A DNA stretch of 64,000 nucleotides from an uncultured Gemmatimonadaceae bacterium. GTDB taxonomy: Bacteria; Gemmatimonadota; Gemmatimonadetes; Gemmatimonadales; Gemmatimonadaceae. Positions within the stretch are counted from its first letter, which is position 1; the number at the start of each line of letters is the position of its first letter. The stretch is from positions 609,077 through 673,076 of the forward strand of contig CAYTFY010000003.1 of assembly GCA_964437225.1 (NCBI GenBank). The letters run 5' to 3'. The notes under the pieces are model-generated. The model was not told where the DNA came from and did not search any database. It saw only the letters and a list, made by a program, of their open reading frames with translations. Both the position numbers and the translations under genes were made by a program. This document shows positions 5,731 through 60,608 of this stretch, in pieces.

Positions 5731-5825
5731 GCTGCAAGAACCTCCACTCCAAAGGGGCAATATATGCAACCTGGTGTTAATCGAAGTCGACTACGATTAC
5801 TCATCAGGAGTCTTTCCTAAAATTA

Positions 5826-6479: not shown

Positions 6480-6662
6480 TATCGCGGGCTCGCGAAGGCC
6501 CTGTTCCTCAGCAACTATAGCGTGGCGTCAGAAAGAATTCGACTGCCGCCGTTGTTATACTATAAAATAATTGAAAGTTGTTACAGCCCATTTAGTCCGA
6601 TTTCACTTAAGAACTCTCCAGGACATAGACCGGATGATAAAATAGTACATTCTGGATAGGCA

Positions 6663-7289: not shown

Positions 7290-7398
7290 TACGCGAAGAC
7301 CGTCTGGATAATCGGGGTGGTTTTTTGCCTCTTTCAAAAAAAATGAAGCCTTTTTGTGCCGTCGGGGAACCTACATACAGAGCCCCCCGACGGTATTT

Positions 7399-8481: not shown

Positions 8482-8490
8482 TGACTACCA

Positions 8491-33135: not shown

Positions 33136-33159
33136 GCTCCACTGGCGTGTCTTTGGAGT

Positions 33160-34293
33160 ATGATGAGACCCGGCACGCCGTCTGGTGACACTCCCCCTGA
33201 TGACACACCGTCCAGTCCGGACGGAACGAGTCATGAGTCGCTCGACGATTTAATCGTTCGTTATTGGACGGGCGAAACCTCGGCTGATGAAGCGGCACGG
33301 CTCACGGCTTGGTTCGCGCGTCATCCCGGACGTCAGTCATGGTATGACGACCTTCATCGCCGTCTCCGAAAGGAGAAGTGGACTACCCTCAGCCCCAATG
33401 TCGTCGCGGAACGAACTGTCAACATCGTTCACGCGGCACGCATTCAGGGGAAACAACCATCGACAAACGTCACACCGCGACGGCCGTCATCGTATTGGCG
33501 ATATGTGTTGGGTGGGACGCTGGCAGGAATGCTCTTGTTGAGCGTGTTCTGGCAGCAACGCGTGCCGCAGCGGATCGTGCACGCCACCACTCCGCGCGCG
33601 GGAAATTCTATCTATACTACAGGCAATGGTGAACGCGCACGGGTCACCTTACCCGATGGAAGTACCGTACAGCTCAACGTCGCTAGCCGGCTCGAAGTGC
33701 CATTTGATTATGATCGTGGAAACCGAACTATACGGCTCACGGGCGAAGCGTTGTTTACGGTTGCGCATTATCAAGGAAATCCATTTACCGTCATCACCGA
33801 ACAGAGTACAACCCGAGTGCTCGGCACGAGTTTTATCGTGCGCCAATATGCAACGGATACCGCGGCTGTCGTTGCGGTGCACGACGGAAAAGTCTCGGTT
33901 GAATTCAACTCGGAATCCGTACGCGAATCCATGGGGCGATCTACGCGTAGCGCTCAGCATGGAGCTGTCGTGGTTACCGCGGGATACGAAACCGTCTTGA
34001 TGGCGGGACATATTCCACGGGTCGATACCGCGAATGCGAGGCGCTTTAGTTTTGCTCAAGGCACATTGTCGATCACATCGTTAACACTCCAAGACGCCAT
34101 CCCTGAATTGAATCGATGGTATAACGCCGACATTCGACTTGGAGACTCCACGTTAGCCACGCGACCCGCCTCCGGCTCGTTGGAGGTTGGTTCGATTACC
34201 GATTTGATGTGGCTGCTACACACCGCGTACGACGTGCGTGTCGTCAGGACCGGTCGCGTGGTCACGCTTTATCCTGAGGAGAGTGCACCGTGA
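33160..34293 (+). CDS. FecR-family anti-sigma factor (cassette 3)
   Basis: Contains LIVRYWTGETSADEAARLTAWFARHP. TM segment VLGGTLAGMLLLSVFW. FecR domain (VTLPDGSTVQLNVASRLEV...LTGEALFTV...TRVLGTSFIVRQY). Confidence 0.85.
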   Translation: MMRPGTPSGDTPPDDTPSSPDGTSHESLDDLIVRYWTGETSADEAARLTAWFARHPGRQSWYDDLHRRLRKEKWTTLSPNVVAERTVNIVHAARIQGKQPSTNVTPRRPSSYWRYVLGGTLAGMLLLSVFWQQRVPQRIVHATTPRAGNSIYTTGNGERARVTLPDGSTVQLNVASRLEVPFDYDRGNRTIRLTGEALFTVAHYQGNPFTVITEQSTTRVLGTSFIVRQYATDTAAVVAVHDGKVSVEFNSESVRESMGRSTRSAQHGAVVVTAGYETVLMAGHIPRVDTANARRFSFAQGTLSITSLTLQDAIPELNRWYNADIRLGDSTLATRPASGSLEVGSITDLMWLLHTAYDVRVVRTGRVVTLYPEESAP

Positions 34294-37200
34294 AACCTGA
34301 AGTACAGGGAGCTGAGATGCAGGCAACGATAATACGGGCAACGCGGATGGATCAGACGTTCAGTAAAGGGTATAAACAACGACGATTTACTCCGAATATC
34401 GTCACACTCGTTGCTGCCATCATACAGTTGGGGAGCTTCATCAGCGTCCCATTAGGGGCGCGGGCGGCCACTGTCGTCCCTTCCGTGCAACAGCCAACGA
34501 GGAACGATAGCACTGCCGCTTCAACCGCTTCCCAACCCTCGGCGCAACAGATCCGATTGGTCATGAATGCGAGTGCGTTGCGAACGGTGTTGCTGACGCT
34601 GAGCCAAGAGAGCAAACAGCCGGTGTATTTTACCGATAAAGATCCACGTTTCGATCAACGGATCAGCGTGAACATCACGGCCCCGAACGTCATGGCCGCA
34701 TTCACCGCAGTTCTGAAAGGGACAGGACTCGTCGCGACCTTGGGGCCTGATGGCCGAACCATTGTGATTGCCGGTGTAAAGGGTGCAAAAGTAAATACAA
34801 ATAAAGATGAAGGTATCATTGTCGGCGCCGTCGTCGATTCAGCGACGAAAAAGCCCCTCGCGGGGGTGACGGTCTTGATTCGTGGCACAAAGCTCGGAGC
34901 AACCACCCGGGAGGATGGTCAGTTCCGCTTTACAAACGTTCCGATTGGGTCTCGTGCGGTGGTGGTACGACTGTTGGGATATCACACACGCACCGTCACC
35001 GTCACAGTCACTGCAAGCGACACGGCGCGCGTGGTGGTCGTGCTCCAGCAGTCATCGACCTCGCTGACCGAAGTGGTCACGACCGCGATGGGACAACAAC
35101 GCCGCATCGATATCTCGAACGATGTGGTGACGATTAACGCCGACAAACTCATCGAATCAGCGCCAATCCGAAACGTCACCGATCTTTTGGTCGCCGCGCA
35201 GGTACCGGGAATGATCGTGACAAAAAGTTCAGGGGATCCCAACGCGCCCACTCGTATTCGATTCGGAGGACCTGGAAGCATTTCTCAGAGTAACGACCCG
35301 GTGGTGATCGTTGATGGGATCTGGATCAAATCGTCGTTTTCTACTCCGGATGTACAGCGAGGGCTGGCGACGCTCAATGGCGTTCCCTCGACATACGTAT
35401 TGGGTGGAGGATCACAATATGTCCCCTCTCGGCTTGATGAGATCGATCCCTCGATGATCGAAACGATCGAAATCGTGCGGGGTCCAGCCGCCACTTCTTT
35501 GTATGGACCCGATGCAGCAAATGGAGTGATCCGAATTACCACCAAACGTGGACGAGCGGGGCCGACACGGTGGGACATCACAGCGTTCCGGAATATTGGA
35601 TCACCTGTGGGAAACAAGCCACCAACGTATCAAGGGTATGGGCACACCACTCGGTCATCCGAAACGACGCTCTGCGGGACATTGGAGCTGTCATACGGGG
35701 CATGCATACAGGATTCATTAGTGATATACGATCCTGATAGTCCGCTATTGAATAACGAAGGAGGTACCTATACAAATAGTCTTTCATTGTCGGTGAGCGG
35801 TGGTTCAAACGCATTGACGTATAACGTGACCGGTTCGATGCAAGACGGTATTGGCCCGCGCCGGTTTCCGGGTGCTTTACGCGTAGGACTCCGTCAGATG
35901 GATCTTCCGATGATCTCGAAATTCCAATTGCCCAGCCAAAATCGGACACGCGCATTGTCTGCTCGAATTGGAATGACTCCTCGTCCTGGCTTGGAAGTCT
36001 CGCTCGATTTCAGTGGGAGTCAACGTAATTCGCAAGAAAATACCGTTGACATCGTTGGGCTTGGAGCTCCGGACGACACGATAACGACGCTTCGTCAACC
36101 GGTCACCTTCACACCGAGCCAAAACAATACCACAGTGACGCATGGTACGATGAACGTGTCCACGACATGGAATGCCCGTGCATGGATGAACGCTACCGCG
36201 ACTTTGGGAGTGGATCGGACCTATCAAGACGAAGCCAATACATCGACAGACAAAAATTGTACGGCCGGCGCCGGGTGTATAGTCTTTGGGAGTGGGCAGG
36301 CCGGAGCAACTGGACGGTCATCGGTGTATTCCATGCGCATTCAATCGAACTTCTTCCCGCAGCTTGGATGGGCTGGTCGGTTCATCGCCATCCGTCCAGG
36401 GATCGCGTTTGACGTGCGGCGGGATGTCAACGCTGGATCCGGACTATTTCTCTATTCACCAGTTGGCGGCGCACAACGCACAACGCTCAGTGCTCCTTGG
36501 AGTAATAGTACCGCGCTTGCGGGATTGAGTGTCAACGCCTACGTCACACTCTTCGATCGCATTTCATTCGACCCAGGCTTCCGTCGTGATTTTGCGAGCT
36601 CACGATCATTTCAGAATGCGCAGAAGTCGTATCCTCGATTTGGGACGTCGTGGCTTATTTCCGATGAATCGTTTTTTCCTAAAACACAATGGATCACTCT
36701 CTTGCGGCTCCGTGGCGCATTTGGGTATGCCGCAGTACAGCCGGATCTGGCTGCGGTGCAAGGTGGGTATTTGGGAGGATCAACCATGGTCAACGGGCAA
36801 AGTTATCCCGTCGTTCGTTTCGTCAGACTTGGGAATTCGGGGTTGGCGCCAGAGCGAAGTGTTGAACTCGAAACAGGATTCGACGCGGAGCTATTGGGAG
36901 ATCGTATTTCATTGACGTTTACACACTCCAACAAACGCAACATCAACACGTTGATCAATCGTGTTGTAGCGCCGTCGTCCGGTGTTCCAAACGACCGTCA
37001 AGAGAATGTGGCGCGGATCCTCAATCAGCAAACCACGTTGGAACTCATGACACGTCCGGTCGATCTTCCGAATCTGACGCTGCGTCTTGGCGCTAACATC
37101 GCCGTGCTCAACAACAAGGTCCAAACCCTCGGGCAAGGCGTAAGCCCGTTTGGTCCGGGTGAACAACGGTATGTCGGAGGATATCCTGTTGGTGGATTGT

Positions 37201-37757
37201 GGGCACTTCCACTCCTTGGCGTACACGACATCAATGGAGACGGATACCTGGGGCTCAATGAGTACGATGTCGGTGACACGTTAGTGTACATTGGCTCCAA
37301 TGTGCCGAGGTACACCGTTGGGTACAATATCGAAGTTGGTTTTTTGCAACGGTTCTCGTTCAGTGCCCGGATGGACTATCAAGGAAAAGGCATGCAAAAT
37401 CGCACGATCGACCCTAATAGCTTGCGTGGACGGTGGGATGCGGACGCGTCAATCGCTGAGCAAATGTTGGTGTTCGGATCATGGGCCGCGAGCACCGCTG
37501 CCGACTATCAATCTATCTCGATGCTTCGGTGGCAATCCGCGTCGCTCACGGTGGATCTGCCGAATTCCTGGTTACGTGTCATGCGCGCGCGACGAGCGCA
37601 ACTGTCGTTGCAAGGGAGCAACCTCGGACTCTGGACCAATTATCACGGACGAGATCCCGGTGTGAACTCCACCCCGATTGGTGAACGAACTACCGATAAT
37701 GGATTGGCACTCGGGATTCCGCGTGCGTATGTCGTACAACTACGATTGGGGTATTAA
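34290..37757 (+). CDS. SusC-like TonB-dependent transducer with STN domain (cassette 3)
   Basis: A GTG overlaps the FecR TGA (GTGA); later ATGs at 34317 and 34347 are possible starts. STN (IRLVMNASALRTVLLTLSQESKQPVYF). CarboxypepD_reg (GAVVDSATKKPLAGVTVLIRGTKLG). Plug (DPVVIVDGIWI, IETIEIVRGPAATSLYGPDAANGVIRITTKRG). Barrel end LQGSNLGLWTNYHGRDPGVNS. Confidence 0.9.
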   Translation: MKPEVQGAEMQATIIRATRMDQTFSKGYKQRRFTPNIVTLVAAIIQLGSFISVPLGARAATVVPSVQQPTRNDSTAASTASQPSAQQIRLVMNASALRTVLLTLSQESKQPVYFTDKDPRFDQRISVNITAPNVMAAFTAVLKGTGLVATLGPDGRTIVIAGVKGAKVNTNKDEGIIVGAVVDSATKKPLAGVTVLIRGTKLGATTREDGQFRFTNVPIGSRAVVVRLLGYHTRTVTVTVTASDTARVVVVLQQSSTSLTEVVTTAMGQQRRIDISNDVVTINADKLIESAPIRNVTDLLVAAQVPGMIVTKSSGDPNAPTRIRFGGPGSISQSNDPVVIVDGIWIKSSFSTPDVQRGLATLNGVPSTYVLGGGSQYVPSRLDEIDPSMIETIEIVRGPAATSLYGPDAANGVIRITTKRGRAGPTRWDITAFRNIGSPVGNKPPTYQGYGHTTRSSETTLCGTLELSYGACIQDSLVIYDPDSPLLNNEGGTYTNSLSLSVSGGSNALTYNVTGSMQDGIGPRRFPGALRVGLRQMDLPMISKFQLPSQNRTRALSARIGMTPRPGLEVSLDFSGSQRNSQENTVDIVGLGAPDDTITTLRQPVTFTPSQNNTTVTHGTMNVSTTWNARAWMNATATLGVDRTYQDEANTSTDKNCTAGAGCIVFGSGQAGATGRSSVYSMRIQSNFFPQLGWAGRFIAIRPGIAFDVRRDVNAGSGLFLYSPVGGAQRTTLSAPWSNSTALAGLSVNAYVTLFDRISFDPGFRRDFASSRSFQNAQKSYPRFGTSWLISDESFFPKTQWITLLRLRGAFGYAAVQPDLAAVQGGYLGGSTMVNGQSYPVVRFVRLGNSGLAPERSVELETGFDAELLGDRISLTFTHSNKRNINTLINRVVAPSSGVPNDRQENVARILNQQTTLELMTRPVDLPNLTLRLGANIAVLNNKVQTLGQGVSPFGPGEQRYVGGYPVGGLWALPLLGVHDINGDGYLGLNEYDVGDTLVYIGSNVPRYTVGYNIEVGFLQRFSFSARMDYQGKGMQNRTIDPNSLRGRWDADASIAEQMLVFGSWAASTAADYQSISMLRWQSASLTVDLPNSWLRVMRARRAQLSLQGSNLGLWTNYHGRDPGVNSTPIGERTTDNGLALGIPRAYVVQLRLGY

Positions 37758-48570: not shown

Positions 48571-49761
48571 TTAGCTCTGAAAGAGAGAAGTCGATAGCTC
48601 GGTCAATGATGCTGCTTTTTGGGGAGGTCTGACTTTTGAAAGGGAAGAAGGACAATCTTTTCTACGCAAAGCTTGGGAGGTAAATTCGACAATTCTCTTA
48701 TCCGTCATCAAAACATCTACATAAGGAAGATAGGCAATGTGTTGAATGTCAAGTTGGTCACTGGCAACCGGAGTGTTGGTTGCTTTTGCCATCTGTAACT
48801 CTACCGCGCCTGCTAGCCACGTACCGGGGCACTGATCGATTTGAACAAGCGCTGCTATAGAGTCAATCGTAGATTCCTCGGTGACATTAAGAAAGTTACG
48901 GAGTATTTCCTGAACATTTTTACGAAATACTGACTCCTGAATTAAGATGTCAATGTGTTTCTTCTGCGACGTACTGCTGTCCGCGATCGGAAGTAGCGAT
49001 TCCAGACCCTTCCTTGGGCCCAGGTCAGTCATTGTTTGAATAATATCCCGGCCAAGCTCCTCTGTGAGCTTTTTTAGCTGGGTGATCGCTGCGGCCGGAA
49101 GAAGTTGTTCTATACCTTCCCAAACAGAATTGTCCTCAAGAGCTTTGCGGAACATTTCATTTGCTGTCGCAACATCAAAGTCACTGGGATACTCTTCCGG
49201 GATTTCAGAGAGACGCGGTCGTTCATACTGCTGTTCTTTAGGTCGTACCCTTGCACGTGCTCCAGTAGTAAGCGCGCTGCGCAGAAACCGTGATGTATGG
49301 GCGAGAACGGGATCTTCGATGATTACGAGCTGGTCGATTTCCTCGGCTGTTCTTAATACCCCAGGAAAAATGTCAATCCAGCGAGTAATTGTTTCCACTA
49401 AGTTAGGCCCGGTGCCTCCGAGGATGCCAAGTTCGCAATAAGCACGGACGATTTCTCGGCCAACGAGTAGGCGAGGACCTAATGGCTCGACTTCCTCGGT
49501 AGGGAAATCAAGAACTAGAGGAGCGAGGCTTTGGAAAGTTTTTCGGCGGGCTTCCCGAGTGATCTGGTCAGCATGCTGACGTAGTTCCATCAAATGCGTA
49601 AGAGTAATAACTAACGCATTAGAACTTTCTTTCCATCGCTTTATAAACTTGCAAAACTCCCGCTGATCTTTTGCTGCAGCAGTTGCTAGTAAATGATGGT
49701 GGCTTGTGTCAAGATAAATGAGTCGCGCTCTATGCTCGGGAAATAATATAGGCTTGGTCAT
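48571..49761 (-). CDS. Hypothetical 396-aa protein with PIN-like N- and C-terminal motifs
   Basis: A clean ORF with N-terminal RLIYLDTSHHHLL...LTHLMELRQ and C-terminal IAYLPYVDVLMTDKRIVEF. These resemble the first and last acidic-residue strands of PIN-like nucleases, separated by a long insert. The assignment is tentative. Confidence 0.6.
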   Translation of the reverse strand: MTKPILFPEHRARLIYLDTSHHHLLATAAAKDQREFCKFIKRWKESSNALVITLTHLMELRQHADQITREARRKTFQSLAPLVLDFPTEEVEPLGPRLLVGREIVRAYCELGILGGTGPNLVETITRWIDIFPGVLRTAEEIDQLVIIEDPVLAHTSRFLRSALTTGARARVRPKEQQYERPRLSEIPEEYPSDFDVATANEMFRKALEDNSVWEGIEQLLPAAAITQLKKLTEELGRDIIQTMTDLGPRKGLESLLPIADSSTSQKKHIDILIQESVFRKNVQEILRNFLNVTEESTIDSIAALVQIDQCPGTWLAGAVELQMAKATNTPVASDQLDIQHIAYLPYVDVLMTDKRIVEFTSQALRRKDCPSSLSKVRPPQKAASLTELSTSLFQS

Positions 49762-49933
49762 TTCTGGGTGGAGTCAATGTTGCTCATGTGCTATTGTTCA
49801 AAATTGGATTAACACAACGCCCCACAGAGTATAACACTCACCTGTCATCGCGGCTGAGCACCACCTCGCTGGTGCGGAGTGGCCAAGTTTAGGCAGGTCG
49901 CGCGCCACTGCATTCCGCTCCTAAGTGGTTCTC

Positions 49934-49977
49934 AAGGAGAGCTCTTTAAGCTGCTCTCAGCTAAAAGAGCTCTCCTT
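49934..49977 (-). terminator. Strong hairpin immediately downstream of the 3-TM gene
   Basis: A perfect 14-bp inverted repeat: aaggagagctcttt (49934-49947) / aaagagctctcctt (49964-49977). An inner agctg/cagct pair is also present. No clear U-tract follows, so intrinsic-terminator function is uncertain. Confidence 0.4.
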
Positions 49978-49983
49978 CGAAGG

Positions 49984-50802
49984 CTACCTATTAAGGCTTA
50001 ATAATCCGCCCACGACGGTCAGCGACACCAGTATCGTCACCACGTGAAGTGCTAGAAGGGCGTTCGGCACCCAAATCTCACGAGACGTAAAGGAACGGTA
50101 AATCTTGGGATCTTCTCCCCTTCCAAGAGCTTCCCACTCCGCGGCATAAATCGAGGCCTTTAGATAGCGCTCGATATAGTTGATAACCTGAAACTTACCT
50201 CGATTCAATTGTCCGAACGATGAGATCAAACTTCGCCATGCACCGCATAAAATGGCACCGGCCACAGCCAGTACAGCTACACCAAGTCCGCCCATTCTGT
50301 TGCCACCGGAGTTCTGAACAATCAATCCCGAAGCGGTGAGGAGTGCTCCATTCATCGTCAGAAAAAAAGTATTTACCGCCTGCCGGCGACCAACAAGGCC
50401 CTCCGAGCTTTGAACCATAATCTTGTAGAGATCAAGAGCTTGCTGAGTCGCGGCGTCGCCTTCAGGGGGGCCGAACGGGAAAAGAACTTCGGCGAAACGC
50501 GGTCGAGACGGAGTGCGTATCCCGAGTTCATCTGCAGCGCGGCGAATGGCAACGACGAAGATCCGATCCTCGTCTTGAACGGAGCTTGGTAATTCGTCGT
50601 AAGCGACCAGAGAGGCGTGAGTAGAATCGCGCTCAGCCATCCAAGCTGACCATGCGTCGTGAACATCACTTTCGCTCACATCACACCCTTTAGAGCGAAG
50701 GAGAATAGCATACGTTCGAAGCAAAGCTTCGGCATGGCCATTCGGCATACGCTCATCTGGGATGTGCTTTCGGATTCGGGCGGCGATATCGTCGAGGTAC
50801 AT
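49984..50802 (-). CDS. Membrane protein: soluble N-domain with RyR-like motif plus three C-terminal TM helices; candidate effector partner of the TIR gene
   Basis: 272-aa ORF starting 6 nt after the TIR-like gene stop. N-domain VHDAWSAWMAERDSTHASLVAYDELPSSVQDEDRIFVVAI. TM segments FFLTMNGALLTASGLIV, GLGVAVLAVAGAILCGAW and ALLALHVVTILVSLTVVGGLL. Confidence 0.7.
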   Translation of the reverse strand: MYLDDIAARIRKHIPDERMPNGHAEALLRTYAILLRSKGCDVSESDVHDAWSAWMAERDSTHASLVAYDELPSSVQDEDRIFVVAIRRAADELGIRTPSRPRFAEVLFPFGPPEGDAATQQALDLYKIMVQSSEGLVGRRQAVNTFFLTMNGALLTASGLIVQNSGGNRMGGLGVAVLAVAGAILCGAWRSLISSFGQLNRGKFQVINYIERYLKASIYAAEWEALGRGEDPKIYRSFTSREIWVPNALLALHVVTILVSLTVVGGLLSLNR

Positions 50803-50808
50803 AGATGA

Positions 50809-51192
50809 CTAAACCCAGGTTCTTAACCACTTCGCTATCTGATCGAAGTTCCAGCGGATGACGTCACTGCTTGGAATACCTGTCGGAATTGAGTGCGACT
50901 TATCCTTGTTGATCTGAATGCCAAAGAGGTAATGACCTTGTCGGGTCGTCTCCGCGATCTCCCAAAGTACTGCGTCCGATTTCCAAGTCGTGGGGCCAAT
51001 CAAGACGATGGTTCCTTTCGTTATGCCAATCCTCTTAGAGCATTCAGTCTTCCATTGGGAATCAAAAGGACTTTTCACAGAGTAGTCGTAAAACTCGATG
51101 TTGTTTCGGTCATCTCTAGCATGCTGCGCTAGAAAATCGCGCGCCCATTTGTCCTCCATTTCGAAGCTGATGAATGCACGAGGTGTAGCCAT
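50809..51192 (-). CDS. TIR-like (DUF1863 / ThsB-like) protein
   Basis: Start at MATPRAFISFEMEDKWARDFL (ATG at 51192, with GGAG 7 nt upstream). GTIVLIGPTTWKSDAVLWEIAETTRQGHYLFGIQIN matches the ThsB pattern ..VLIG..T..R.WV.YEI......IIGI.IN, including the glutamate. The ORF-track N-extension to 51501 is Arg-rich and rejected. Confidence 0.7.
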   Translation of the reverse strand: MATPRAFISFEMEDKWARDFLAQHARDDRNNIEFYDYSVKSPFDSQWKTECSKRIGITKGTIVLIGPTTWKSDAVLWEIAETTRQGHYLFGIQINKDKSHSIPTGIPSSDVIRWNFDQIAKWLRTWV

Positions 51193-52197
51193 GGATAATC
51201 TCCGTTGTCCTGTTTTGAATTGGATGCGAGGGACCGCCGACTGAGCGGCCCCGTAGACCCGCAATGGGGGTGGCACTCTAACGATATTTGGACTGCAAAG
51301 CTTCAGTTCATATAAGTGATGTAAATTAGCCCTCTTCAAAATATATGCTGAACGCCGCCTGCAGTCGCATCGCAGTTTGCTCGGAGCGTCCCTCCCCCAG
51401 AGAGTGCGCGAACTGCCTGCATTCTTGGTTGGGTGACCGAGCGAAAGAATCGGTCTCCGAACGGTCCCGGTAGGCGGGTGATAGTGACCGTTGGACGTCA
51501 AAAATCATCCAAATCTGGTCCTTGCCTGGGCTGACCGCATTGAAGGCCATGGGCATTGGGGCTGGAATCGTAGTGTTCTTAAAGGGTGTTTTGGGACCGT
51601 ATATTTAAGGCGTCGGAACCAAGGCGTATCCAACCTACCTGACAGTGAAACAAGGTCTAGGAACACATGGGCGAAGGTGGGTCTTACGCCTGGTGAGCCA
51701 TTTCTGACGCAGAATATGCCTTAGAAAAAGTTCGTCAATTGCCAGGAATCTGCACTCGTGACGGTGATTCATTCACAATGGCAGAACGCACTGGATGAGC
51801 GATCTCATGGAAGATTGGTCGGCCATTCGATTGGCGAACCGCTCAGGCACTCATTGATGAGGATCGGGTTGAACGCTAAAAGATCAATCGCGTCGGTGGG
51901 TCTCTTTCACTCAACATCGGAAGACAACAGGGACCGCTTCCAATAATCAGCAAATCCCAGAAATCCGCAGCGGACGTTTTGGGCAAGTTACAAATACGGC
52001 AAGGCTGGATTGGTACCAGCGATCTCTTACAGCCTCTGGATGAGAAGAGTCTCTCGTCCTCGCTAATGTTTCCGTCGATCGAGGCATGGGGCTCTCGAGT
52101 CCGTGGCACGGGGGGCTACCATAAGAGAAATCCCGACGAAAAGATATGAAAATATCAAAATTGTGATGTTTGTGTAAGATATTTAAGAAATAAAAAC

Positions 52198-52230
52198 TGT
52201 GTTGACACGATAGTGTGTACAACACATTAT
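52198..52230 (+). promoter_or_regulatory. Candidate promoter with overlapping operator palindrome upstream of the XRE gene
   Basis: TTGACA (52202-52207), a 17-nt spacer, then CATTAT (52225-52230), 6 nt before the ATG. There is an imperfect palindrome tgtgttgacac (52198-52208) / gtgtacaacaca (52215-52226). The host promoter consensus is unknown. Confidence 0.3.
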
Positions 52231-52236
52231 TGTGTT

Positions 52237-53076
52237 ATGCGAAATCGTGTTCGTGACCTTCGTACTCGACTCGGGTGGTCCCAAAATGAGCTTGCCAAAG
52301 CCGCAGGAACAAGTCAGCAGCAAATTCAACGTATTGAAATTGGCGATCAAAGCGTCAAGCTTGACCTTGCTATACGTCTCGCAACTGCTCTAAAAGCCGA
52401 CCTGACAGAAGTATTTCCGCAAGCAAAGCAAGCGCTTGGAAGCTCGCGTCCTCATAACGTCGCAGACCTTACACAGTTAGCCGACAATGACAAAAAGCGT
52501 CGTGCTCTAGAAGATGCAGGACTTGATACCGATAGTGATTCTTGGTCTTTAGTTATCGGCTTAAGAACCGGAGCGAAAGTTCATTTACCAATTAGTACTG
52601 AAGAGAAAAATCGGTTTAGACATAATTTGATATCGATAGAACCAAGTGCACCATTTTTTGTATTCGATTCAGGCCATTTTCATGTTGGTATCAACCTCCT
52701 TGAAATACAGTATGTGCAGGAGTTATGGGAGCCAGATCCAACAATTAGTGAATGGGCCACGCCCAAATTTGATAAAACGGATATCACCGTCTATCTAAGA
52801 GGAAGAGCCGAACCATTGTTGTTCAGTGGTAGTCCAGATTGGGAAGACAGTTCAGATGAAGAAGATATCGGTCAATTCGAAAGTATATTCCAGATAGCTC
52901 AGACATTCATCGAAAAATACCACTTTTTTGACTTCCTTGACGGTGATGGTGAGTCCGTGCATTTACGAGCGCAGGATATAGAACTTTTAGCGATTCCTAT
53001 GTGGTTGACGGATAAAGAGTTTATTGATGATGAGTTAGATAAGGACGATAGTGAATCAAGCAACATCGACGAGTGA
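52237..53076 (+). CDS. XRE-family HTH protein with an uncharacterised C-terminal domain of about 210 aa and an acidic tail
   Basis: MRNRVRDLRTRLGWSQNELAKAAGTSQQQIQRIEIGDQSVKLDLAIRLATAL is a canonical HTH_3 domain. The C-terminus is unassignable and ends DDELDKDDSESSNIDE. Confidence 0.8.
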   Translation: MRNRVRDLRTRLGWSQNELAKAAGTSQQQIQRIEIGDQSVKLDLAIRLATALKADLTEVFPQAKQALGSSRPHNVADLTQLADNDKKRRALEDAGLDTDSDSWSLVIGLRTGAKVHLPISTEEKNRFRHNLISIEPSAPFFVFDSGHFHVGINLLEIQYVQELWEPDPTISEWATPKFDKTDITVYLRGRAEPLLFSGSPDWEDSSDEEDIGQFESIFQIAQTFIEKYHFFDFLDGDGESVHLRAQDIELLAIPMWLTDKEFIDDELDKDDSESSNIDE

Positions 53077-53095
53077 GATGCTGGAATAATAGCAT

Positions 53096-53827
53096 ATGAT
53101 GATACTTGAATCAGTATTGACGTGGCTTCGTGACCCTATCTGGCAAAGCTTAGGGGTATTAATCGCAGTTTTTGCTGCAGCTTGGACAGCAGGGCGACGA
53201 GATAAGAAGCAGATATATTACGAGACTTTTTCATCTCCAGTTGTGGTTCCTGATGCTGGATATGGAGATCGAGTGAAAGTATTGTTTGATGAGAAAGAAG
53301 TCTCGAATGTATGGACTGGAAGATTTTCTATTCAAAACAGAGGAAACATCCCAGTCAAATCCGGGGATTTTGAACAAAATATTGTTTTAACTGTCGGCCC
53401 AGAAAGTCAGTTTTTGAGTGCCGCTATTGGTCGAGTATCGGAACCAACTCTGAATCCAAATCTTGAGTTTGTACCAGGGAGTTCACAACTATCTATCCGG
53501 CCCATGTTACTTAATCCAGGAGATCGCTTCGAGATAAACTTTGTTTCAGAGGGAGTACGTCCTACGATCAAAGTAATGTCAAGAATTTCTGGTATCAAAT
53601 CTATAAAGCCAGATCCTGCGTTTGCTCGGGATCTATTCTTCAATAGCATTCTAATATGTAGTATCTCTCTAGGGATGACTTTTTATATAGATAGAAACCC
53701 ACAAATGCGTGACGCTGTGGGCGGCAACGGCGTGCTCGTTTTAATCGCATCCGTAACCGTAATAGGTATATTTCTGTCGAAGTCTTCATTTTCTGAATGG
53801 AGACGTAAGGAGCGTTTTGATAGTTAA
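53096..53827 (+). CDS. Hypothetical membrane protein (1 N-terminal and 2 C-terminal TM helices around a beta-rich domain)
   Basis: 243-aa ORF starting 19 nt after the XRE gene. TM segments SLGVLIAVFAAAW, FFNSILICSISLGMTFYI and GVLVLIASVTVIGIFL. The coding sequence is A+T-rich. Confidence 0.65.
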   Translation: MMILESVLTWLRDPIWQSLGVLIAVFAAAWTAGRRDKKQIYYETFSSPVVVPDAGYGDRVKVLFDEKEVSNVWTGRFSIQNRGNIPVKSGDFEQNIVLTVGPESQFLSAAIGRVSEPTLNPNLEFVPGSSQLSIRPMLLNPGDRFEINFVSEGVRPTIKVMSRISGIKSIKPDPAFARDLFFNSILICSISLGMTFYIDRNPQMRDAVGGNGVLVLIASVTVIGIFLSKSSFSEWRRKERFDS

Positions 53828-54483: not shown

Positions 54484-54941
54484 CTAAGAAACGGACCCTA
54501 AAGGATTTCCGGTAGGTGATGCTGTGACAATTTGCCCTATTCCTGCCCTATCTGTGCTCAATATGCCCAATCGTATGGAAATATCAACGACGCTCGAAAA
54601 TGGTCGTGCCAGATCATATTGCGAAAAATCTACTTTCATCTGCACCGAGATATCCGATCCGCGTCCAATATGCCCCATCCGTGGCTCACGTACTTTTGCG
54701 ACGGATTCATGAAACACAACATCTGGCGTGGTGAGCCAACTCGGAAGTTGTATATATCTCTTTCGAAGCTGTCGAAATATCTCCTTGCGTGCTTCGACGA
54801 GATACCCATTCACCGTACTCGCACTGACCTGCATGATCATTGCTGCTGCATCATGCGACCGTTCTGCCACACCACATAACAAGAAGGCCTGTCGACAGCG
54901 CAACGGTAACCGTTGAATAATATTATGGAACCCGCGTTCTT
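54484..54941 (-). pseudogene. Sigma-70 region-4-only ORF; likely truncated sigma-factor remnant
   Basis: IQRLPLRCRQAFLLCGVAERSHDAAAMIMQVSASTVNGYLVEARKEI is a region-4 HTH. The homology runs upstream of the only available start (TTG at 54903) to a stop at 54940-54942. No region 2 is present. Confidence 0.4.
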
Positions 54942-55262: not shown

Positions 55263-55958
55263 ATGACGTTTTCTGCTGATCTGCGTGCCTTCGCATCGTC
55301 TCAATTCGATGACGATGCCGGTGGTATACAACCAGGGAAACGACCGCAGGGAGAAAGATCTCGTCCCACCATCATCCTCGCCGCATCGCTCATTAGCCGA
55401 GTACAAGCGCGCGACGCCGACGCGTTCCGCGAATTGGTTCAAACGCTCTACGTTCCACTCGTTCGATTCGCGCGTTCCCTCCTTGGCTCACATGATGATG
55501 CCAAAGATGTCGTACAGGACGTATTAGCTCTTGTCTGGGACTTGGGTCCACGTTGGATACCAAATGGCGATCCGGTCGCATATCTATTTGCCAGCGTACG
55601 TAACCACGCGTTAAAAGAAATACGTCGTCGAGACCGCGCACACCAACGCGCTCAACGGGCACACAGTGTTGATTTGGCCGTTCCCGGTAACCCTGAAGCT
55701 ACAGAGCACCCCAACGCGCTCGACCAAGTCATAGAAACCGAAGTCGATATCGTGCATCGACAACATGTGAGCATAGTTCTGTCAACACTCTCGGAGCGCT
55801 ATCGTACTGTCTACGAACTCCGCTACCGACGAGGGCTCTCTGTGTCTGCTATTGCGGAAGTCCTGGGTACGTCTGTGAAGAGCGCAGAACACCTGACCGC
55901 GCGAGTCACGCAGATGGTACTCGAACGGCTTCGACAAAGAATTTCAAGAATTATTTAG
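55263..55958 (+). CDS. ECF-type sigma factor with N-terminal extension (cassette 4)
   Basis: Region 2 is DVVQDVLALVWDLGPRW. Region 4 is LSERYRTVYELRYRRGLSVSAIAEVLGTSVKSAEHLTAR. The N-terminal ADLRAFASSQFDDDAGG parallels the cassette 2 sigma. Confidence 0.85.
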   Translation: MTFSADLRAFASSQFDDDAGGIQPGKRPQGERSRPTIILAASLISRVQARDADAFRELVQTLYVPLVRFARSLLGSHDDAKDVVQDVLALVWDLGPRWIPNGDPVAYLFASVRNHALKEIRRRDRAHQRAQRAHSVDLAVPGNPEATEHPNALDQVIETEVDIVHRQHVSIVLSTLSERYRTVYELRYRRGLSVSAIAEVLGTSVKSAEHLTARVTQMVLERLRQRISRII

Positions 55959-55998
55959 AAAACCGGGGGTTTGGGTGCGTCGGCGGGATGTACCAGGT

Positions 55999-57078
55999 AT
56001 GAGAGACGACTCGTTCACTTTACCGCGACCCACCGATGCGATGCCTGACCCCCGACTGATTGAGCGGTACGTCGCGGGCGAATGCACGCTGCCGGAGCGA
56101 GTGGTAATACAACGATGGATAGCTGTGAACCCGAATTGGGGTGATGCCTTAGCAGCTATGCGTTGTGACAGCGCGCACGAGCTTGCAGGGAGAGAAGAGT
56201 CGATTGATGAGCGTGCTGAAACACAGCAACTGTTCGCACGAGTTGGATTGCAAAATCTCGATAATGCGAACATGCCGGAGAATGGATGGGCCGAGACCGC
56301 ATCTGCGCCCTCAGACGTTCGTCGAGTCCGCAACGCATATTTTGGGTTCAGCGTACGTCGTATCGCATATGGAGTTGCAGCGACCGGCCTGTGTCTTGTG
56401 ATCGCCGCTGTGACGGTTCTCGGATGGGCCCGATCTGCAGAGCCGACCACCGTTCCCGTTTCTACCTACACAACAGGAAATGGTGAACGCGCGACGATCA
56501 AGCTCCCTGACGGAAGCACCGTTGTGCTCAACGTCGCCAGTCGTCTCGAAGTGCCGATCGACTATCTTGAAGGGCATCGCGCGTTGCGATTGGAAGGTGA
56601 AGCGAGGTTCTCTGTTGTTGCACAATCAGACGCACCGTTTACTGTGGAGTCTGGTAAGACAGTGACACGTGTGCTTGGGACACGCTTCGTTGTTCGCCAT
56701 TACGAGACCGATCCGTCGACTATGGTTGCGGTGCACGACGGGAAAGTTGCCGTCAACGGTGCTGTCTTGACTGGCGCACAGCGCGCCGAAATCTTTGCAA
56801 ATGGTGAGACCATTGTGTCCAGGGTCACTGACATGGATAACACATTTGCCGATGGTGTACTCATACTGCGCGGTGCGTTGCTATCCGATGCTATTACTGA
56901 TCTCAATCGATGGTACGACGTAGATGTACGAATTGTTGATTCGTCTCTTGCCACCCGTCGGTTAGATGCAAAATTGGATGCTGGATCGCCATCTGATTTG
57001 CAGACGATTCTGGAGTTGACCTTTGGTGTGCGCGTGGTGCGCGATGGACGAGTTCTTTCTCTGTACTCCGGGCGATGA
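55999..57078 (+). CDS. FecR-family anti-sigma factor (cassette 4)
   Basis: The start is chosen at MRDDSFTLPRPTD by alignment with MSDTAFSLPKPTD of cassette 2. Contains YVAGECTLPERVVIQRWIAVNP. TM segment GVAATGLCLVIAAVTVLGW. FecR domain (IKLPDGSTVVLNVASRLEV...TRVLGTRFVVRHY). Confidence 0.85.
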   Translation: MRDDSFTLPRPTDAMPDPRLIERYVAGECTLPERVVIQRWIAVNPNWGDALAAMRCDSAHELAGREESIDERAETQQLFARVGLQNLDNANMPENGWAETASAPSDVRRVRNAYFGFSVRRIAYGVAATGLCLVIAAVTVLGWARSAEPTTVPVSTYTTGNGERATIKLPDGSTVVLNVASRLEVPIDYLEGHRALRLEGEARFSVVAQSDAPFTVESGKTVTRVLGTRFVVRHYETDPSTMVAVHDGKVAVNGAVLTGAQRAEIFANGETIVSRVTDMDNTFADGVLILRGALLSDAITDLNRWYDVDVRIVDSSLATRRLDAKLDAGSPSDLQTILELTFGVRVVRDGRVLSLYSGR

Positions 57079-60000
57079 GTGTGCGAACAAAACAATATTT
57101 GATGTGTGGAGTGATGGTAGGTTTAACTGGTATGATGCCCACGACGGTGGTGTGTGCACAATCGGAGATTGGGACGCAGACCGACGCGCGATATACGGTG
57201 CAATCCGGGAGAGTTGCTGTGCAAGAGGACGATAAGGCGCAGCCACAGAAACGTGATAGTAAAACGTCGGAACGTTCCGTCACACTTAATGTGCGCGACA
57301 GTTCAATGTTGTATGTCATCAATGAGATATCACGGCAGGCTGGGCTCCGCATTGCATTCGATCGAACCTTATCGCAGTTCAAATCGAAGGTGAGTCTGAA
57401 CGTTACACAGATGAAGCCAGCGGCTGCGTTGGCCGTTGCCGTAAAGAGTTCGGGGTTGGAGGTGGTAGTGGCGCCTGATGGGCGAACTGTTGTCATTCGT
57501 CCGAGCACAAAAGATGGTGCTGGGAGATCCGAATTACAGGATACAGGAGCGGTATTCGTTCGTGTGACGGATTCGGCGTCCGGCCAGCGGATTTCTGGAG
57601 TGACTGTCGCCATCACGGGAACAAAGATCGTGGGAACTACCAATGGACAGGGAGAGCTTCGATTGATGAATGTTCCACTTGGAGACCGATTAGTGACGAT
57701 TAAAATGTTTGGTTATCGTCCGACCAGCCGTGCCATTGAGGTGAATAAGGAGAAGCCGACCTATCTTCTCATCGCGTTAGTATCCATCCCGACAGCATTA
57801 TCTGGAGTTGTTACTACAGCAACAGGAATGCAACGCAAGCTCGAGATCGGGAATTCCATTACATCGATTAATGTCGATTCGGTGATGAACGTTGCGCCAA
57901 TTGCGACGTTGACTGATTTGTTGGAAACGCGGGTCCCGGGATTGATAGTGCAGCATACGTCAGGCGCACCCGGAGATCCATCTCGTATTCGAATTCGTGG
58001 TTCGAGTAGCATTACGAGAAGTAATGATCCGATTGTAATTGTGGATGGGATTCGCGTGTACGGGGATCAGTCTGTTGGGCAGAGCCAGAACTTATCGCAA
58101 CAGGACGCTGGGCAAGGGGGGCTCAACATCATGCAAGCCAGAACTCCTTCACTCGCGCCGTCACCGCTAGATCAGATCGACCCGAACAGCATTGAGACGA
58201 TCGACGTATTCAAAGGTCCGAGTGCTGCCGCACTGTACGGGTCGGACGCCGCGAATGGAGTTATCGTGATAACCACTAAACGTGGCCGTCCGGGAAAGAC
58301 GCAGTGGACCGTGGCTCTCAATCAGGGCATTCAATACCTTCCCGGGAAGTATCCAGAAGGTACGTATCAGTTTGGGCATATCGAGGGTAGTTCATTCCAA
58401 TACGGAACTTTACGTTGTCCACAATCAGTGCTGCTAGCTGGTACGGCGGGGTGCGTCGTCGACAGCCTAGTACGGTTTCAGGCGCTCAACGATTCGCGAT
58501 ACACCATTCTCGGTCACGGTTTAAATAGTGGAGCCAGTATGACGGTGCGAGGCGGGGTTTCAAATCTGCAATATGCGCTGACTGGCACGGGCTCAAGTAC
58601 GCTGGGCCTACTTCGCCTACCAGCGGCCGAAGTGGAACGTTTCACAGCTTTGCATAGCCGACGGCCTCCTGAATGGATGCGGCGACCCCAAACCTATAAC
58701 ACGTGGGGGGGAACGGGCTCAGTCACGGCCCAGGTCAACCCCCGAACTTCCGTTACGCTGTCGAGTGCATTATTTCATAGCAACCAACAGCGCTCATCCC
58801 TGGAGTCCGCACTACCCGCGCTTGCGGAAACGTATCTCGATCCGGCATTACTGGGTGAGAGTCCGATCATTAACGACTTCTATCGACGTGCAACATCGGA
58901 GGGGCTCACGTCGCGGAACAGTCTACAATTACAATGGGTGCCGATTTCGTGGCTTCCCGTGACTGCGACCGCAGGGCTCAATATAGGGACGCGCACCGAT
59001 CAGACACTCGTCCCCCGTGGGTATCTAACCTCGGTCGTCGATAGCAGCGGACGGTTTGCCATTGGAAAGGGCAGTGATCAGACTCGCTCGTTTTCGGTAA
59101 ATACCAGCGTCCCGTTTCCATGGATGAGAACCGTACTTGCCCTGGGATTCAGTGGGAACGCTCAGTCCGTCGCCACCGTGCGGGCGCAAACAAATGTCAT
59201 TCCCCCGGGAGTCGACCTACCAACCGTGTTTCCCACTGATCAAGTCAACGTGAGCAGTATCAGCCAAAGCACCACGGCAGGAGCGACTTATGGCTGGTTT
59301 GTTGAGCCGCGCTTGAATGTGACCTCGCGTTTCTTCGTGATGGCAGGGTTGCGCTTGGATAACAACGGACTGGCTGGAGCACGGGCCGGAATTATGGGTC
59401 TTCCGAAGATGAACTTCTCATGGATCGCCTCCGAGGAGCCGTTCTTTCCTTGGAAGGGTCTGTTCACGACGTTACGACTGCGGACAGCTATCGGCTCCAG
59501 TGGAGTGCAGCCAGCGCCAACCGATCGTCTTCGTACCTATGCTGTGTTGACGAGTGCGGACATCAATGCGGCGAGTCTGTCCTCGACCACAGTCGTTTCG
59601 AATCAGCAACTGCTTGGACTAAATACGCTCGGCAATACACAACTTCGGCCAGAGCGATCCCGGGAGTTGGAGGGAGGCTTCGATGCCGACCTATGGAACA
59701 ACCGATTGCATGTGGAGGTGACGCGATATCAAAAGACGAAACAGGATGCGATTCTCAGCATTCTGCTCGCGCCGTCGTTGGGTGGCTACAGCTCCTCGCA
59801 ATCCATCAATATAGGAGTGGTGCGAAACACAGGGCTCGAAATGAACCTCAGCACGCAAGTGCTCGATCTGCAGCAGGTCCGATGGACTGTAGGGACCTTG
59901 ATCAGTCGGAATAATAATGTGGTGGTTCGCCTCAACCCAGGGCAAAGTGCAATCACGTTTCCAGAAGCCGGGGTGGTTGGCAGCACGCGGGTGGTGCCAG

Positions 60001-60608
60001 GATACCCGCTGTTCGGGCGATGGGTGAGGCCGATAGCGGGGTTCGCAGATGCCAATGATGACGGTTTCATTGATCGGAGTGAAGTGCGCATCAGCGATAG
60101 TTTAGTCTACGTCGGGCGGCAGGAGCCCGACTACACCATGACGATGAATACCTCGGCAACCTTTTTAGGAAAATTCAGTGTTAATGCGTCTCTCAGCTAC
60201 CAGCACGGCGTTGTGCAAGTGAACAATGCGCGGAGCACAAACTCGGGAGATAGCCCATTTTCTCCCGTCGGTCCGGATGTGCCGCTTAGCACGCAGGCGG
60301 CATACGCGGCATTGAGTTCTGGGGTGATTACGACCGAGTCGGGGACCGCGTACGGATTCATCCAATCAGTGAACACGCTACGTTTTGAGACATTCTCGGT
60401 GTCTTATAACATGCCACAGACTGTTGCTCAATGGTTGCGAGGGCGCTCGATGCTTCTTTCTCTACAAGGGAGCAATCTAGGCCTTCGGACGAATTACCGG
60501 GGCAAGGACCCTAGCGTTGGGGCAAGAGCGACGGGGTACAGCATCATCGACGATGGGCAGGTTCCGTTGCCACGCAAATGGGAACTTCGCGTACAGGTGG
60601 GCAACTAA
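57075..60608 (+). CDS. SusC-like TonB-dependent transducer with STN domain (cassette 4)
   Basis: ATGA overlap with the FecR stop. STN (VTLNVRDSSMLYVINEISRQAGLRIAF). CarboxypepD_reg (VRVTDSASGQRISGVTVAITGTKI). Plug (DPIVIVDGIRVY, IETIDVFKGPSAAALYGSDAANGVIVITTKRG). Barrel end LQGSNLGLRTNYRGKDPSV. Confidence 0.9.
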   Translation: MSVRTKQYLMCGVMVGLTGMMPTTVVCAQSEIGTQTDARYTVQSGRVAVQEDDKAQPQKRDSKTSERSVTLNVRDSSMLYVINEISRQAGLRIAFDRTLSQFKSKVSLNVTQMKPAAALAVAVKSSGLEVVVAPDGRTVVIRPSTKDGAGRSELQDTGAVFVRVTDSASGQRISGVTVAITGTKIVGTTNGQGELRLMNVPLGDRLVTIKMFGYRPTSRAIEVNKEKPTYLLIALVSIPTALSGVVTTATGMQRKLEIGNSITSINVDSVMNVAPIATLTDLLETRVPGLIVQHTSGAPGDPSRIRIRGSSSITRSNDPIVIVDGIRVYGDQSVGQSQNLSQQDAGQGGLNIMQARTPSLAPSPLDQIDPNSIETIDVFKGPSAAALYGSDAANGVIVITTKRGRPGKTQWTVALNQGIQYLPGKYPEGTYQFGHIEGSSFQYGTLRCPQSVLLAGTAGCVVDSLVRFQALNDSRYTILGHGLNSGASMTVRGGVSNLQYALTGTGSSTLGLLRLPAAEVERFTALHSRRPPEWMRRPQTYNTWGGTGSVTAQVNPRTSVTLSSALFHSNQQRSSLESALPALAETYLDPALLGESPIINDFYRRATSEGLTSRNSLQLQWVPISWLPVTATAGLNIGTRTDQTLVPRGYLTSVVDSSGRFAIGKGSDQTRSFSVNTSVPFPWMRTVLALGFSGNAQSVATVRAQTNVIPPGVDLPTVFPTDQVNVSSISQSTTAGATYGWFVEPRLNVTSRFFVMAGLRLDNNGLAGARAGIMGLPKMNFSWIASEEPFFPWKGLFTTLRLRTAIGSSGVQPAPTDRLRTYAVLTSADINAASLSSTTVVSNQQLLGLNTLGNTQLRPERSRELEGGFDADLWNNRLHVEVTRYQKTKQDAILSILLAPSLGGYSSSQSINIGVVRNTGLEMNLSTQVLDLQQVRWTVGTLISRNNNVVVRLNPGQSAITFPEAGVVGSTRVVPGYPLFGRWVRPIAGFADANDDGFIDRSEVRISDSLVYVGRQEPDYTMTMNTSATFLGKFSVNASLSYQHGVVQVNNARSTNSGDSPFSPVGPDVPLSTQAAYAALSSGVITTESGTAYGFIQSVNTLRFETFSVSYNMPQTVAQWLRGRSMLLSLQGSNLGLRTNYRGKDPSVGARATGYSIIDDGQVPLPRKWELRVQVGN

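Follow-up and report, generated by a model that had tools for sequence, protein, structure and literature searches.

The stretch of DNA analysed in this study, hereafter the window, comprises 64,000 nucleotides from an uncultured Gemmatimonadaceae bacterium (assembly GCA_964437225.1, contig CAYTFY010000003.1, positions 609,077 to 673,076 of the forward strand). On its minus strand, it carries a pair of genes that probably constitutes a Thoeris-type abortive-infection module. The first gene encodes a 127-aa TIR protein, and the second encodes a 272-aa membrane effector in which a head of the Pfam family DUF7701, resembling a ryanodine receptor (RyR) repeat, is joined to a three-helix domain of the Pfam family 8xMP. 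In this module, a signal made by the TIR protein would be sensed by the RyR-like head, and the 8xMP domain would damage the membrane. A preliminary description of the locus, made from the sequence alone, had proposed a Thoeris-like pair in which a TIR protein is coupled to a membrane effector whose sensor domain is not SLOG, SIR2 or Macro, and the comparative tests described below support this proposal at the sequence level. Both open reading frames (ORFs) and the 6-nt gap between them lie exactly where that description had placed them (Table 1).

We envisage the following sequence of events. Phage infection would switch on the small ThsB-like TIR protein, and its Glu78 would convert NAD+ into a messenger derived from ADP-ribose (ADPR), most likely an isomer of cyclic ADPR (cADPR). 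This messenger would be bound by the cytoplasmic pocket of DUF7701, which would consist of His48-x2-Trp51, His62 and Asp79, and the binding would alter the state of the presumably ring-forming, three-helix 8xMP domain. The 8xMP domain would then permeabilise or depolarise the inner membrane, and the infected cell would be halted before the release of phages.

The 127-aa protein matched the Pfam family ThsB_TIR (PF08937) over residues 7–98 with an E-value of 1.2e-14 and is, judging from this match, a bare TIR domain of the ThsB type, which we presume to be the signal synthase. PADLOC reported weak matches to ThsB and PDC-M50B, a search of the PDB returned the ThsB structures 6lhy and 9b7d, again weakly, and NCBIfam contained no match for this protein. 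In an alignment of 54 sequences, consisting of operon-linked TIRs and two reference TIRs, Glu78 was kept in 98% of the sequences and aligned with the catalytic Glu85 (YEI) of Bacillus cereus ThsB and with the WEI of the type IV ThsB of Pseudomonas. The family match and the alignment thus uphold the earlier assignment of the protein as a ThsB-type TIR with a conserved Glu, and the motifs quoted for the locus at that time (AFISFEMEDKW, VLIGPTTWKSDAVLWEIAE, LFGIQIN and VHDAWSAWMAERDSTHASLVAYDELPSSVQDEDR) are all present. The TIRs associated with DUF7701-fused effectors form a tight clade with identities of 66–80%, whereas their identity to the TIRs located beside bare 8xMP genes is 30–38%.

The effector matched two Pfam families, DUF7701 (E = 1.6e-30) in its N-terminal part and 8xMP (E = 3.8e-33) in its C-terminal part. 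The latter match covers positions 1–135 of the 136-position model and, at 114.6 bits, lies well above the gathering score of 30. The matches of both proteins to their Pfam families are far stronger than chance would produce. A scan with the Pfam models detected no SIR2, SLOG, Macro, SLATT_1-6 or PF10028 domain in the effector at E ≤ 1, in agreement with the earlier statement that neither SLOG, SIR2 nor Macro was recognisable. PADLOC (2023 version), which had recognised the TIR protein as ThsB, if weakly, has no model for the effector, and neither it nor NCBIfam returned anything for this protein. A search of a set of 5.8 billion proteins yielded 510 homologues at E ≤ 1e-3, the best 120 of which are 66–91% identical to the effector. 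The effector of the window is closest (73%) to one in a Gemmatimonadota metagenome-assembled genome (MAG).

In the monomer structure predicted by AlphaFold2 (AF2), which has a mean predicted local distance difference test score (pLDDT) of 88, the helices in the C-terminal half span residues 116–164, 169–211 and 238–264. The first is a long amphipathic helix containing RRQ that leads into transmembrane segment (TM) 1, the second comprises TM2 and an amphipathic stretch, and a short helix precedes TM3, which corresponds to the third. In the hydropathy profile, two of the TM helices are strongly hydrophobic and the first (143–163) is moderately so. The layout of three hydrophobic helices recognised in the preliminary description was therefore confirmed with this qualification, and it is similar overall to that of SLATT-type effectors, as suggested there. 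By sequence, however, an assignment to SLATT was rejected because no SLATT model matched at E ≤ 1, while 8xMP matched at 4e-33. Among 127 representative sequences of the 8xMP family, R140, E222 and W223 are invariant, and Y126, R139, K203, E211, Y235, E242 and P246 are nearly so. In the AF2 model, the conserved polar residues of the domain all lie on the predicted cytoplasmic face.

The 8xMP domain is presumed to be a membrane-disrupting or channel module. In Pfam, 8xMP is described as an 'octameric membrane protein family', and a ring formed by the effector may be of this size. A search of the PDB with the 8xMP family profile revealed no solved relative, and a literature search for 8xMP, for octameric membrane proteins and for RipA combined with octamer turned up no relevant paper. 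A Foldseek search using the full-length two-domain model returned meaningless helical matches and nothing else, and the N-domain was then remodelled alone.

This N-terminal DUF7701 head is RyR-repeat-like, both by sequence profile and by predicted fold. As a single sequence, it matched the Bacteroides/human RyR Repeat12 chimera 6uhi with E = 0.0033, and the profile of the DUF7701 family matched the same structure with E = 4.3e-5, followed by weaker matches to 6uag, 6ug5, 4n05 and 3nrt, which are bacterial RyR-domain structures. The AF2 model of residues 1–105 (pLDDT, 92.7; predicted template modelling score, 0.86) consists of four helices. In a Foldseek search of the PDB with this model, the top six matches were all RyR repeats, with weak statistics (E of 0.25–2). 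In BFVD, the top three were DUF7701 proteins of Streptomyces phages (E of 1e-5 to 2.5e-4; TM-score, 0.68–0.75), and ranks 4–14 included approximately 10 phage RyR-domain proteins with probabilities of 0.92–1.00, eight of which are named 'Ryanodine receptor Ryr domain' proteins. These profile and fold matches bear out the RyR-domain-like signature that had previously been noticed in the N-domain. The Pfam scan of the head yielded no match to PF02026 at E ≤ 1, and Pfam keeps DUF7701 as a separate family.

Within the DUF7701 family, no variation is seen at H48, W51, W54, L71 and D79 and hardly any at H62, and the pocket residues are also kept in the standalone actinobacterial copies and in the phage copies. 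In their pattern, H48/W51/H62/D79 correspond to the residues that contact 3'cADPR in two phage proteins, namely H75/W78/H100/D117 of RyDEP (PMC13232231) and H129/W132/H154/D171 of RyR Tad (10.64898/2026.06.04.730250). These 2026 preprints show either nanomolar affinity for 2'/3'cADPR and cADPR or cleavage of these molecules by RyR-domain proteins of phages (PMC13232231; 10.64898/2026.06.04.730250). The loop between W51 and H62 is approximately 11 residues shorter in DUF7701 than in the phage RyR-domain proteins.

A more specific proposal can be put forward, tentatively and with more doubt than confidence. DUF7701 might be a host-side RyR-repeat receptor for a cADPR isomer made by the TIR protein that directly gates a ring-shaped membrane channel, and the RyR sponges and hydrolases of phages, together with the DUF7701 proteins of Streptomyces phages, might be decoys that were derived from this receptor or are convergent with it. 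His48 and Asp79 may, in addition, make such a receptor self-limiting through slow hydrolysis of its ligand.

To examine the conservation of the pair, we scanned one genome per species and obtained 75 loci, including a close set of 23 loci with effector identities of 49–75%. Upstream DNA was present in 22 loci of the close set, and in all but one of these (21 of the 22), the fused DUF7701-8xMP gene is preceded, at a distance of 3–7 nt, by a TIR ORF of 125–127 aa. The 23 loci are distributed over Gemmatimonadota, Acidobacteriota, Beta- and Gammaproteobacteria, Bacteroidota, Verrucomicrobiota, Planctomycetota, Chloroflexota, Spirochaetota and Actinomycetota, and the pair is also present in contigs of Marinobacter salarius. 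No third gene is conserved: the genes for the 396-aa, HTH, 243-aa, 145-aa and 161-aa proteins that neighbour the pair in the window do not recur in the related loci. The TIR gene and the DUF7701-8xMP gene thus form a conserved, self-contained module, as the treatment of the two genes as a unit in the preliminary description had implied.

The neighbours of the pair in the related loci are heterogeneous, and many of them are housekeeping or metabolic genes. BREX, DISARM, Hma, Old and methyltransferase genes were each found beside the pair in a single related locus, and extra ThsB genes adjoin it in some. Two TIR genes are located upstream of the effector gene in one locus (L011), and an additional TIR gene is located downstream in two others (L009 and L021). 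In a Phycisphaerales MAG (L018, 5611-9511), the pair lies within a composite Thoeris island that contains a further ThsB_TIR gene (7446-8084) and a type IV-like arrangement consisting of a convergent TIR gene (9113-9511) and a Peptidase_C14 caspase-like gene (8096-9070).

Beyond the pair, the 8xMP domain is widespread, and 8xMP is a TIR-linked effector family in general. An exhaustive search detected the domain in 2291 representative clusters at E ≤ 1e-3. Among the 127 representatives scanned, 126 matched 8xMP, 12 of which also matched DUF7701, and a TIR domain was fused to 8xMP in the form of ThsB_TIR in 15 and of TIR_2 in 9, counts that may overlap. None of the 127 matched DUF2270 or, at E ≤ 0.001, SLATT. 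A TIR gene was adjacent to the standalone 8xMP gene in five of the six cases sampled. Many members of the family are standalone proteins of 170–200 aa, and one or two ThsB genes adjoin the genes that encode them (L085-L091, representatives P0147-P0284).

The TIR-8xMP fusions, which place a TIR domain on an oligomeric membrane scaffold, bring to mind a flow of information in the opposite direction. The membrane protein would sense a perturbation of the envelope or membrane caused by the phage, during entry or lysis, and would activate the TIR protein as an NAD+-depleting effector; oligomerisation activates TIR NADases. The authors of a recent Thoeris survey have also cautioned that the TIR may be an NADase effector in types that have not been verified (10.64898/2025.12.03.692087). 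We nevertheless regard this order of events as improbable. It leaves the conserved nucleotide-pocket motif of DUF7701 unexplained, the TIR belongs to the small ThsB class, related members of which supply separate effectors with N7-cADPR or other signals, and in a verified system composed of a TIR and a three-TM protein, the signal leads to the toxicity of the effector (10.64898/2025.12.03.692087).

DUF7701 and 8xMP are not always fused. In a metagenomic contig (L085), they are encoded by separate adjacent genes in the same order as in the fusion. In Actinomycetota (L029-L080), the order is reversed in 46 of the 52 loci, where an 8xMP gene (~155 aa) is followed by a DUF7701 gene (~96 aa) with overlapping or nearly adjacent stop and start codons (e.g. 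L041, 5971-6743, and L051, 5926-6722). Because the two domains are found fused, split in the same order and split in the reversed order, they are likely to be functional partners. A TIR gene is located upstream in 23 of the 52 actinobacterial loci. In five of the loci without a TIR gene, there is a homologous upstream ORF, which in the two cases scanned was assigned to DUF4328 by Pfam. The other neighbours of the TIR-less loci contain no informative domain, including a cluster of neighbouring ORFs from 18 loci that has no Pfam domain.

DUF7701 proteins are also encoded in 40 Streptomyces phage genome records, either as standalone proteins or with DUF7701 located C-terminally to another domain. 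Their identity to the N-domain of the effector is 31–45%, and H48, W51, W54, H62 and D79 are kept in both of the aligned copies, those of phages Annadreamy and Paradiddles. The 25 phage DUF7701 proteins for which annotations were listed are all hypothetical. Judging from their sequences, the Streptomyces phage proteins are candidates for an anti-Thoeris family of sponges or hydrolases.

Several of the findings weigh against our reading of the pair as a module in which a TIR-made signal acts on the membrane through the RyR-like head. DUF7701 is absent from many of the operons and fusions that combine a TIR with 8xMP, and approximately half of the 8xMP + DUF7701 pairs in Actinomycetota have no adjacent TIR gene. 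In the structural comparison, the N-domain matched solved RyR repeats with weak statistics (E of 0.25–4), and H48 and D79 occupy the positions of the catalytic dyad of RyDEP (PMC13232231). The likeness of 8xMP to the verified type V effector ThsF, described below, is marginal, the 2023 version of PADLOC contains no model for the effector, and the name 'RipA family', given by NCBI to some homologues, hints at non-immune roles of some relatives.

Because TIR + 8xMP systems exist without DUF7701, 8xMP may sense the signal by itself, and DUF7701 would then be an accessory; similarly, because H48 and D79 match the glycosidase dyad of RyDEP, DUF7701 might degrade the signal instead of transducing it. 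Taken together, these considerations lead to an alternative in which the 8xMP ring is the receptor, with positively charged cytoplasmic pockets between its protomers, and DUF7701 is a sponge or slow glycosidase that sets the threshold or switches the effector off, comparable with the ring nucleases of type III CRISPR systems. The conserved Arg139, Arg140 and Lys203 on the cytoplasmic face of 8xMP in the AF2 model could line such pockets, and ligand pockets between protomers were modelled for ThsF by Yirmiya et al. (10.64898/2025.12.03.692087). The RyDEP relatives are sponges or hydrolases (PMC13232231), DUF7701 is a separate small protein in Actinomycetota, and phages carry standalone copies of it. 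However, an N-terminal ligand domain fused to an effector is the usual layout of sensor-effector proteins, as in SLOG-SIR2 and Macro-TM, and the separation of the tight clade of DUF7701-associated TIRs from the TIRs beside bare 8xMP genes fits a synthase that has evolved together with its receptor. We therefore consider it unlikely that 8xMP rather than DUF7701 serves as the receptor.

The TIR-less actinobacterial pairs and the product name 'RipA family octameric membrane protein', which some homologues with 67–69% identity to the effector carry in NCBI, also bear on a non-immune role. The effector could be a housekeeping or envelope-regulating membrane protein accompanied by a TIR-like regulator, like RipA of Francisella, which affects LpxA and has been linked to this enzyme and not to immunity, or the two genes could form an addiction pair resembling a toxin-antitoxin (TA) system. 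The many ordinary metabolic genes among the neighbours of the pair would fit such a role. Nevertheless, this explanation is very improbable in our opinion. The distribution of the pair is patchy across phyla, with 66–91% identity and no conserved neighbours; in several loci it has defence genes as neighbours, among them extra ThsB genes and the TIR-caspase pair that resembles type IV; phages encode copies of DUF7701; and Francisella RipA is at most a putative member of the effector family. We thus retain the immune module with a TIR-made signal as the working interpretation.

The arrangement of the two genes in the window is compact (Table 1). The spacing of 6 nt, the Shine-Dalgarno-like site in front of the TIR gene and the hairpin behind the effector gene suggest that the pair is a single transcription unit. 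The hairpin, for which RNA folding gave a dG of -35.2 kcal/mol (z = -3.7 relative to shuffled sequences), is a probable terminator of the operon. As it has no T-run, it escaped a simple terminator scan. The counts obtained by the simple promoter and terminator scans were no better than chance.

Table 1. Coordinates of the gene pair and its sites in the window, and of two phage DUF7701 genes in their respective loci
Feature	Position	Strand	Remarks
TIR gene, 127 aa	50809-51192	minus	ATG at 51192, stop at 50809
Glu78 codon (LWEIAE), candidate catalytic Glu	50959-50961	minus	Alignment with Glu85 of B. cereus ThsB
GGAGA, Shine-Dalgarno-like	51199-51203	minus	7-11 nt before the TIR ATG; read from the sequence
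Intergenic spacer, 6 nt	50803-50808	minus	Between TIR gene and effector gene; indicates operon coupling
Effector gene, 272 aa	49984-50802	minus	Second gene of the pair, DUF7701 + 8xMP
DUF7701 domain, residues 2-90	50533-50799	minus	Compact RyR-repeat (R12)-like four-helix domain, presumed cADPR-isomer sensor
RyR-like pocket motif, residues 46-80	50563-50667	minus	DVH48DAW51SAW54...H62ASL...L71...D79R
8xMP membrane domain, residues 123-261	50020-50436	minus	Pfam PF24838, AF2 helices, hydropathy
Long hairpin	49931-49981	minus	Starts 3 nt past the effector stop; no U-tract
Phage DUF7701	L083 2081-2755		Streptomyces phage Annadreamy gp194
Phage DUF7701	L084 1477-1746		Streptomyces phage Paradiddles gp205

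The pair is located in a region of reduced GC content, which is 0.48 between 47.3 and 55.2 kb and 0.53–0.55 in the flanks; that of the gene pair alone is 0.51. The A+T-richer island mentioned in the preliminary description was thus recovered, but the mobile-element scars reported next to it were not, since no integrase, transposase or recombinase domain was detected in the scanned ORFs of the window and no tRNA is present in the window. The low-GC stretch sits between two similar cassettes (32476-37757 and 55263-60608, plus strand). In both, a TonB-dependent receptor that contains a CarboxypepD_reg domain is encoded together with a FecR-like anti-sigma protein. The second cassette includes a confirmed ECF sigma factor gene at 55263-55958, and an ORF occupies the corresponding upstream position in the first (32476-33135).

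Several other ORFs are found in the low-GC stretch. The segment with the lowest GC content in the window (0.42; 52213-53827, plus strand) encodes an XRE/HTH_3 protein of 287 aa, the C-terminal ~200 aa of which are unassigned, and a 243-aa protein whose gene starts 20 nt further on. The latter has no family match; as judged by eye, a single hydrophobic segment lies close to its N-terminus, and one or two more lie close to its C-terminus. These two genes may represent a separate defence or TA-like pair. Approximately 220 nt downstream of the effector gene, a 396-aa ORF on the same strand (48571-49761, minus strand) has no match in Pfam, PADLOC or NCBIfam, and the sole further copy found is in an identical metagenomic contig (L001). 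At the edge of the stretch, residues 1–45 of a 139-aa ORF (54484-54903, minus strand) match sigma-70 region 4 and the PhyR sigma-like domain, and this ORF may be a sigma-like gene that has been truncated or has diverged.

If DUF7701 is indeed the receptor, the RyR repeat would be a third sensor fold in Thoeris effectors, after SLOG and Macro, and a bacterial receptor of the RyR fold would explain where phages found their cADPR pocket. It would be predicted that Streptomyces phages encode a new anti-Thoeris family in the form of their DUF7701 proteins, and that the split actinobacterial genes for 8xMP and DUF7701, whether accompanied by a TIR gene or not, are further variants of the system. In eukaryotes, a direct action of cADPR on ryanodine receptors through Repeat12 is still debated, and the operon, with two genes in ~1.2 kb and a single domain of ~90 residues, offers a small bacterial model for this question; it would also provide a prokaryotic precedent for the opening of a channel by cADPR through an RyR-type domain. 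In practical terms, TIR-linked effectors that the 2023 version of PADLOC misses can be located with the Pfam models of 8xMP and DUF7701.

Among known systems, type V Thoeris is the most similar to the pair in its layout. In a preprint of December 2025, Yirmiya et al. reported a survey of TIR operons, from which they defined Thoeris types V–XI (bioRxiv 10.64898/2025.12.03.692087). In Table S1 of that work, TIRs that are 78%, 70% and 66% identical to the one studied here (IMG 2515435456 for the 78% match, 2516918698 and 2523091958) are labelled 'DUF2270 - Type V', and one that is 65% identical is labelled 'Caspase - Type IV', plausibly as an effect of adjacency such as that seen in the Phycisphaerales island; the type labels in this table are noisy according to the authors (10.64898/2025.12.03.692087). 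The text of the preprint does not contain 'RyR' and contains one unrelated 'ryanodine', the DUF7701-8xMP operon is not among the 30 operons tested by the authors, and the part of Table S3 that was searched has no genome in common with those examined here (10.64898/2025.12.03.692087). In the verified type V system of Bacillus thuringiensis (Bt) DAR 81934, 3'cADPR triggers the toxic three-helix effector ThsF, which was modelled with AlphaFold3 (AF3) as a heptameric ring with ligand pockets between protomers and proposed to be its own sensor, whereas 3'cADPR elicited no response from a second type V system (10.64898/2025.12.03.692087).

Type V and the present pair share a two-gene operon composed of a TIR gene and a gene for a small three-helix membrane effector of the same layout. 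However, the verified ThsF proteins are 132–141 aa in size, and Bt ThsF (141 aa) has no DUF7701 or other RyR-like head. In addition, Bt ThsB is a different TIR of 252 aa, and no similarity between it and the 127-aa TIR was detectable. Bt ThsF aligned with Pfam 8xMP below the threshold (E = 0.012) but collinearly, over positions 6–130 of 136, and within the ThsF family (n = 35), seven members matched DUF2270 of the current Pfam release weakly (best E, 0.033) and three matched 8xMP weakly. Comparisons of the 8xMP and ThsF families with hhalign and hmmsearch also gave collinear alignments, which were not significant. Neither Bt ThsB nor Bt ThsF has a Pfam match above the threshold, and the Bt type V locus (L081, 4001-5198) adjoins a Gabija-like pair consisting of a UvrD helicase and an OLD/TOPRIM ATPase (5454-8759).

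Effectors composed of three TM helices and paired with a TIR are therefore already established experimentally, and relatives of the TIR studied here (66–78% identity) are already catalogued as putative type V. On the other hand, no paper that mentions DUF7701 was found in the searchable literature, and the searchable papers that name both Thoeris and ryanodine deal with other matters, mainly phage proteins. The RyR-like effector head thus appears to be undescribed in this literature, and the pair, as far as its sequence allows us to judge, would be new as a variant and not as a category. The variant status proposed in the preliminary description accordingly holds for the head but not for the coupling of a TIR to such a membrane protein.

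The other Thoeris types are more distant. The SIR2 and SLOG domains of the type I effector ThsA are absent from the present effector (no match at E ≤ 1). Type II Thoeris, which uses a His-ADPR signal, also combines a TIR synthase with an effector that joins a cytoplasmic ADPR-ligand domain to TM helices and kills through the membrane; it differs in its Macro domain, which is absent here (E ≤ 1), whereas the present effector has an all-helical RyR-repeat sensor fold and an 8xMP membrane part and is accompanied by a TIR of another clade. The SLATT effectors of type VII Thoeris and CBASS are likewise small multi-helix membrane proteins activated by nucleotides, and in type VII the SLATT effector is paired with cADPR-making ThsB TIRs, but the SLATT models of Pfam do not match our effector at E ≤ 1. 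Francisella RipA, a putative relative, shares the NCBI name with homologues of the effector and differs in being a membrane protein required for intracellular growth and linked to LpxA, for which no TIR or RyR-like partner is mentioned.

For the head itself, the closest counterparts are RyDEP and RyR Tad of phages and Repeat12 (PF02026) of animal ryanodine receptors. All of them share the all-helical RyR-repeat fold with DUF7701, and the His-x2-Trp/His/Asp pocket is common to DUF7701 and the phage proteins. RyDEP and RyR Tad are, however, borne by phages, whereas the DUF7701 head is on the host side and is fused to a membrane effector encoded downstream of a TIR gene. The RyR-like head links bacterial TIR immunity with the RyR-domain counter-defence of phages and with the question of how cADPR acts on ryanodine receptors in animals.

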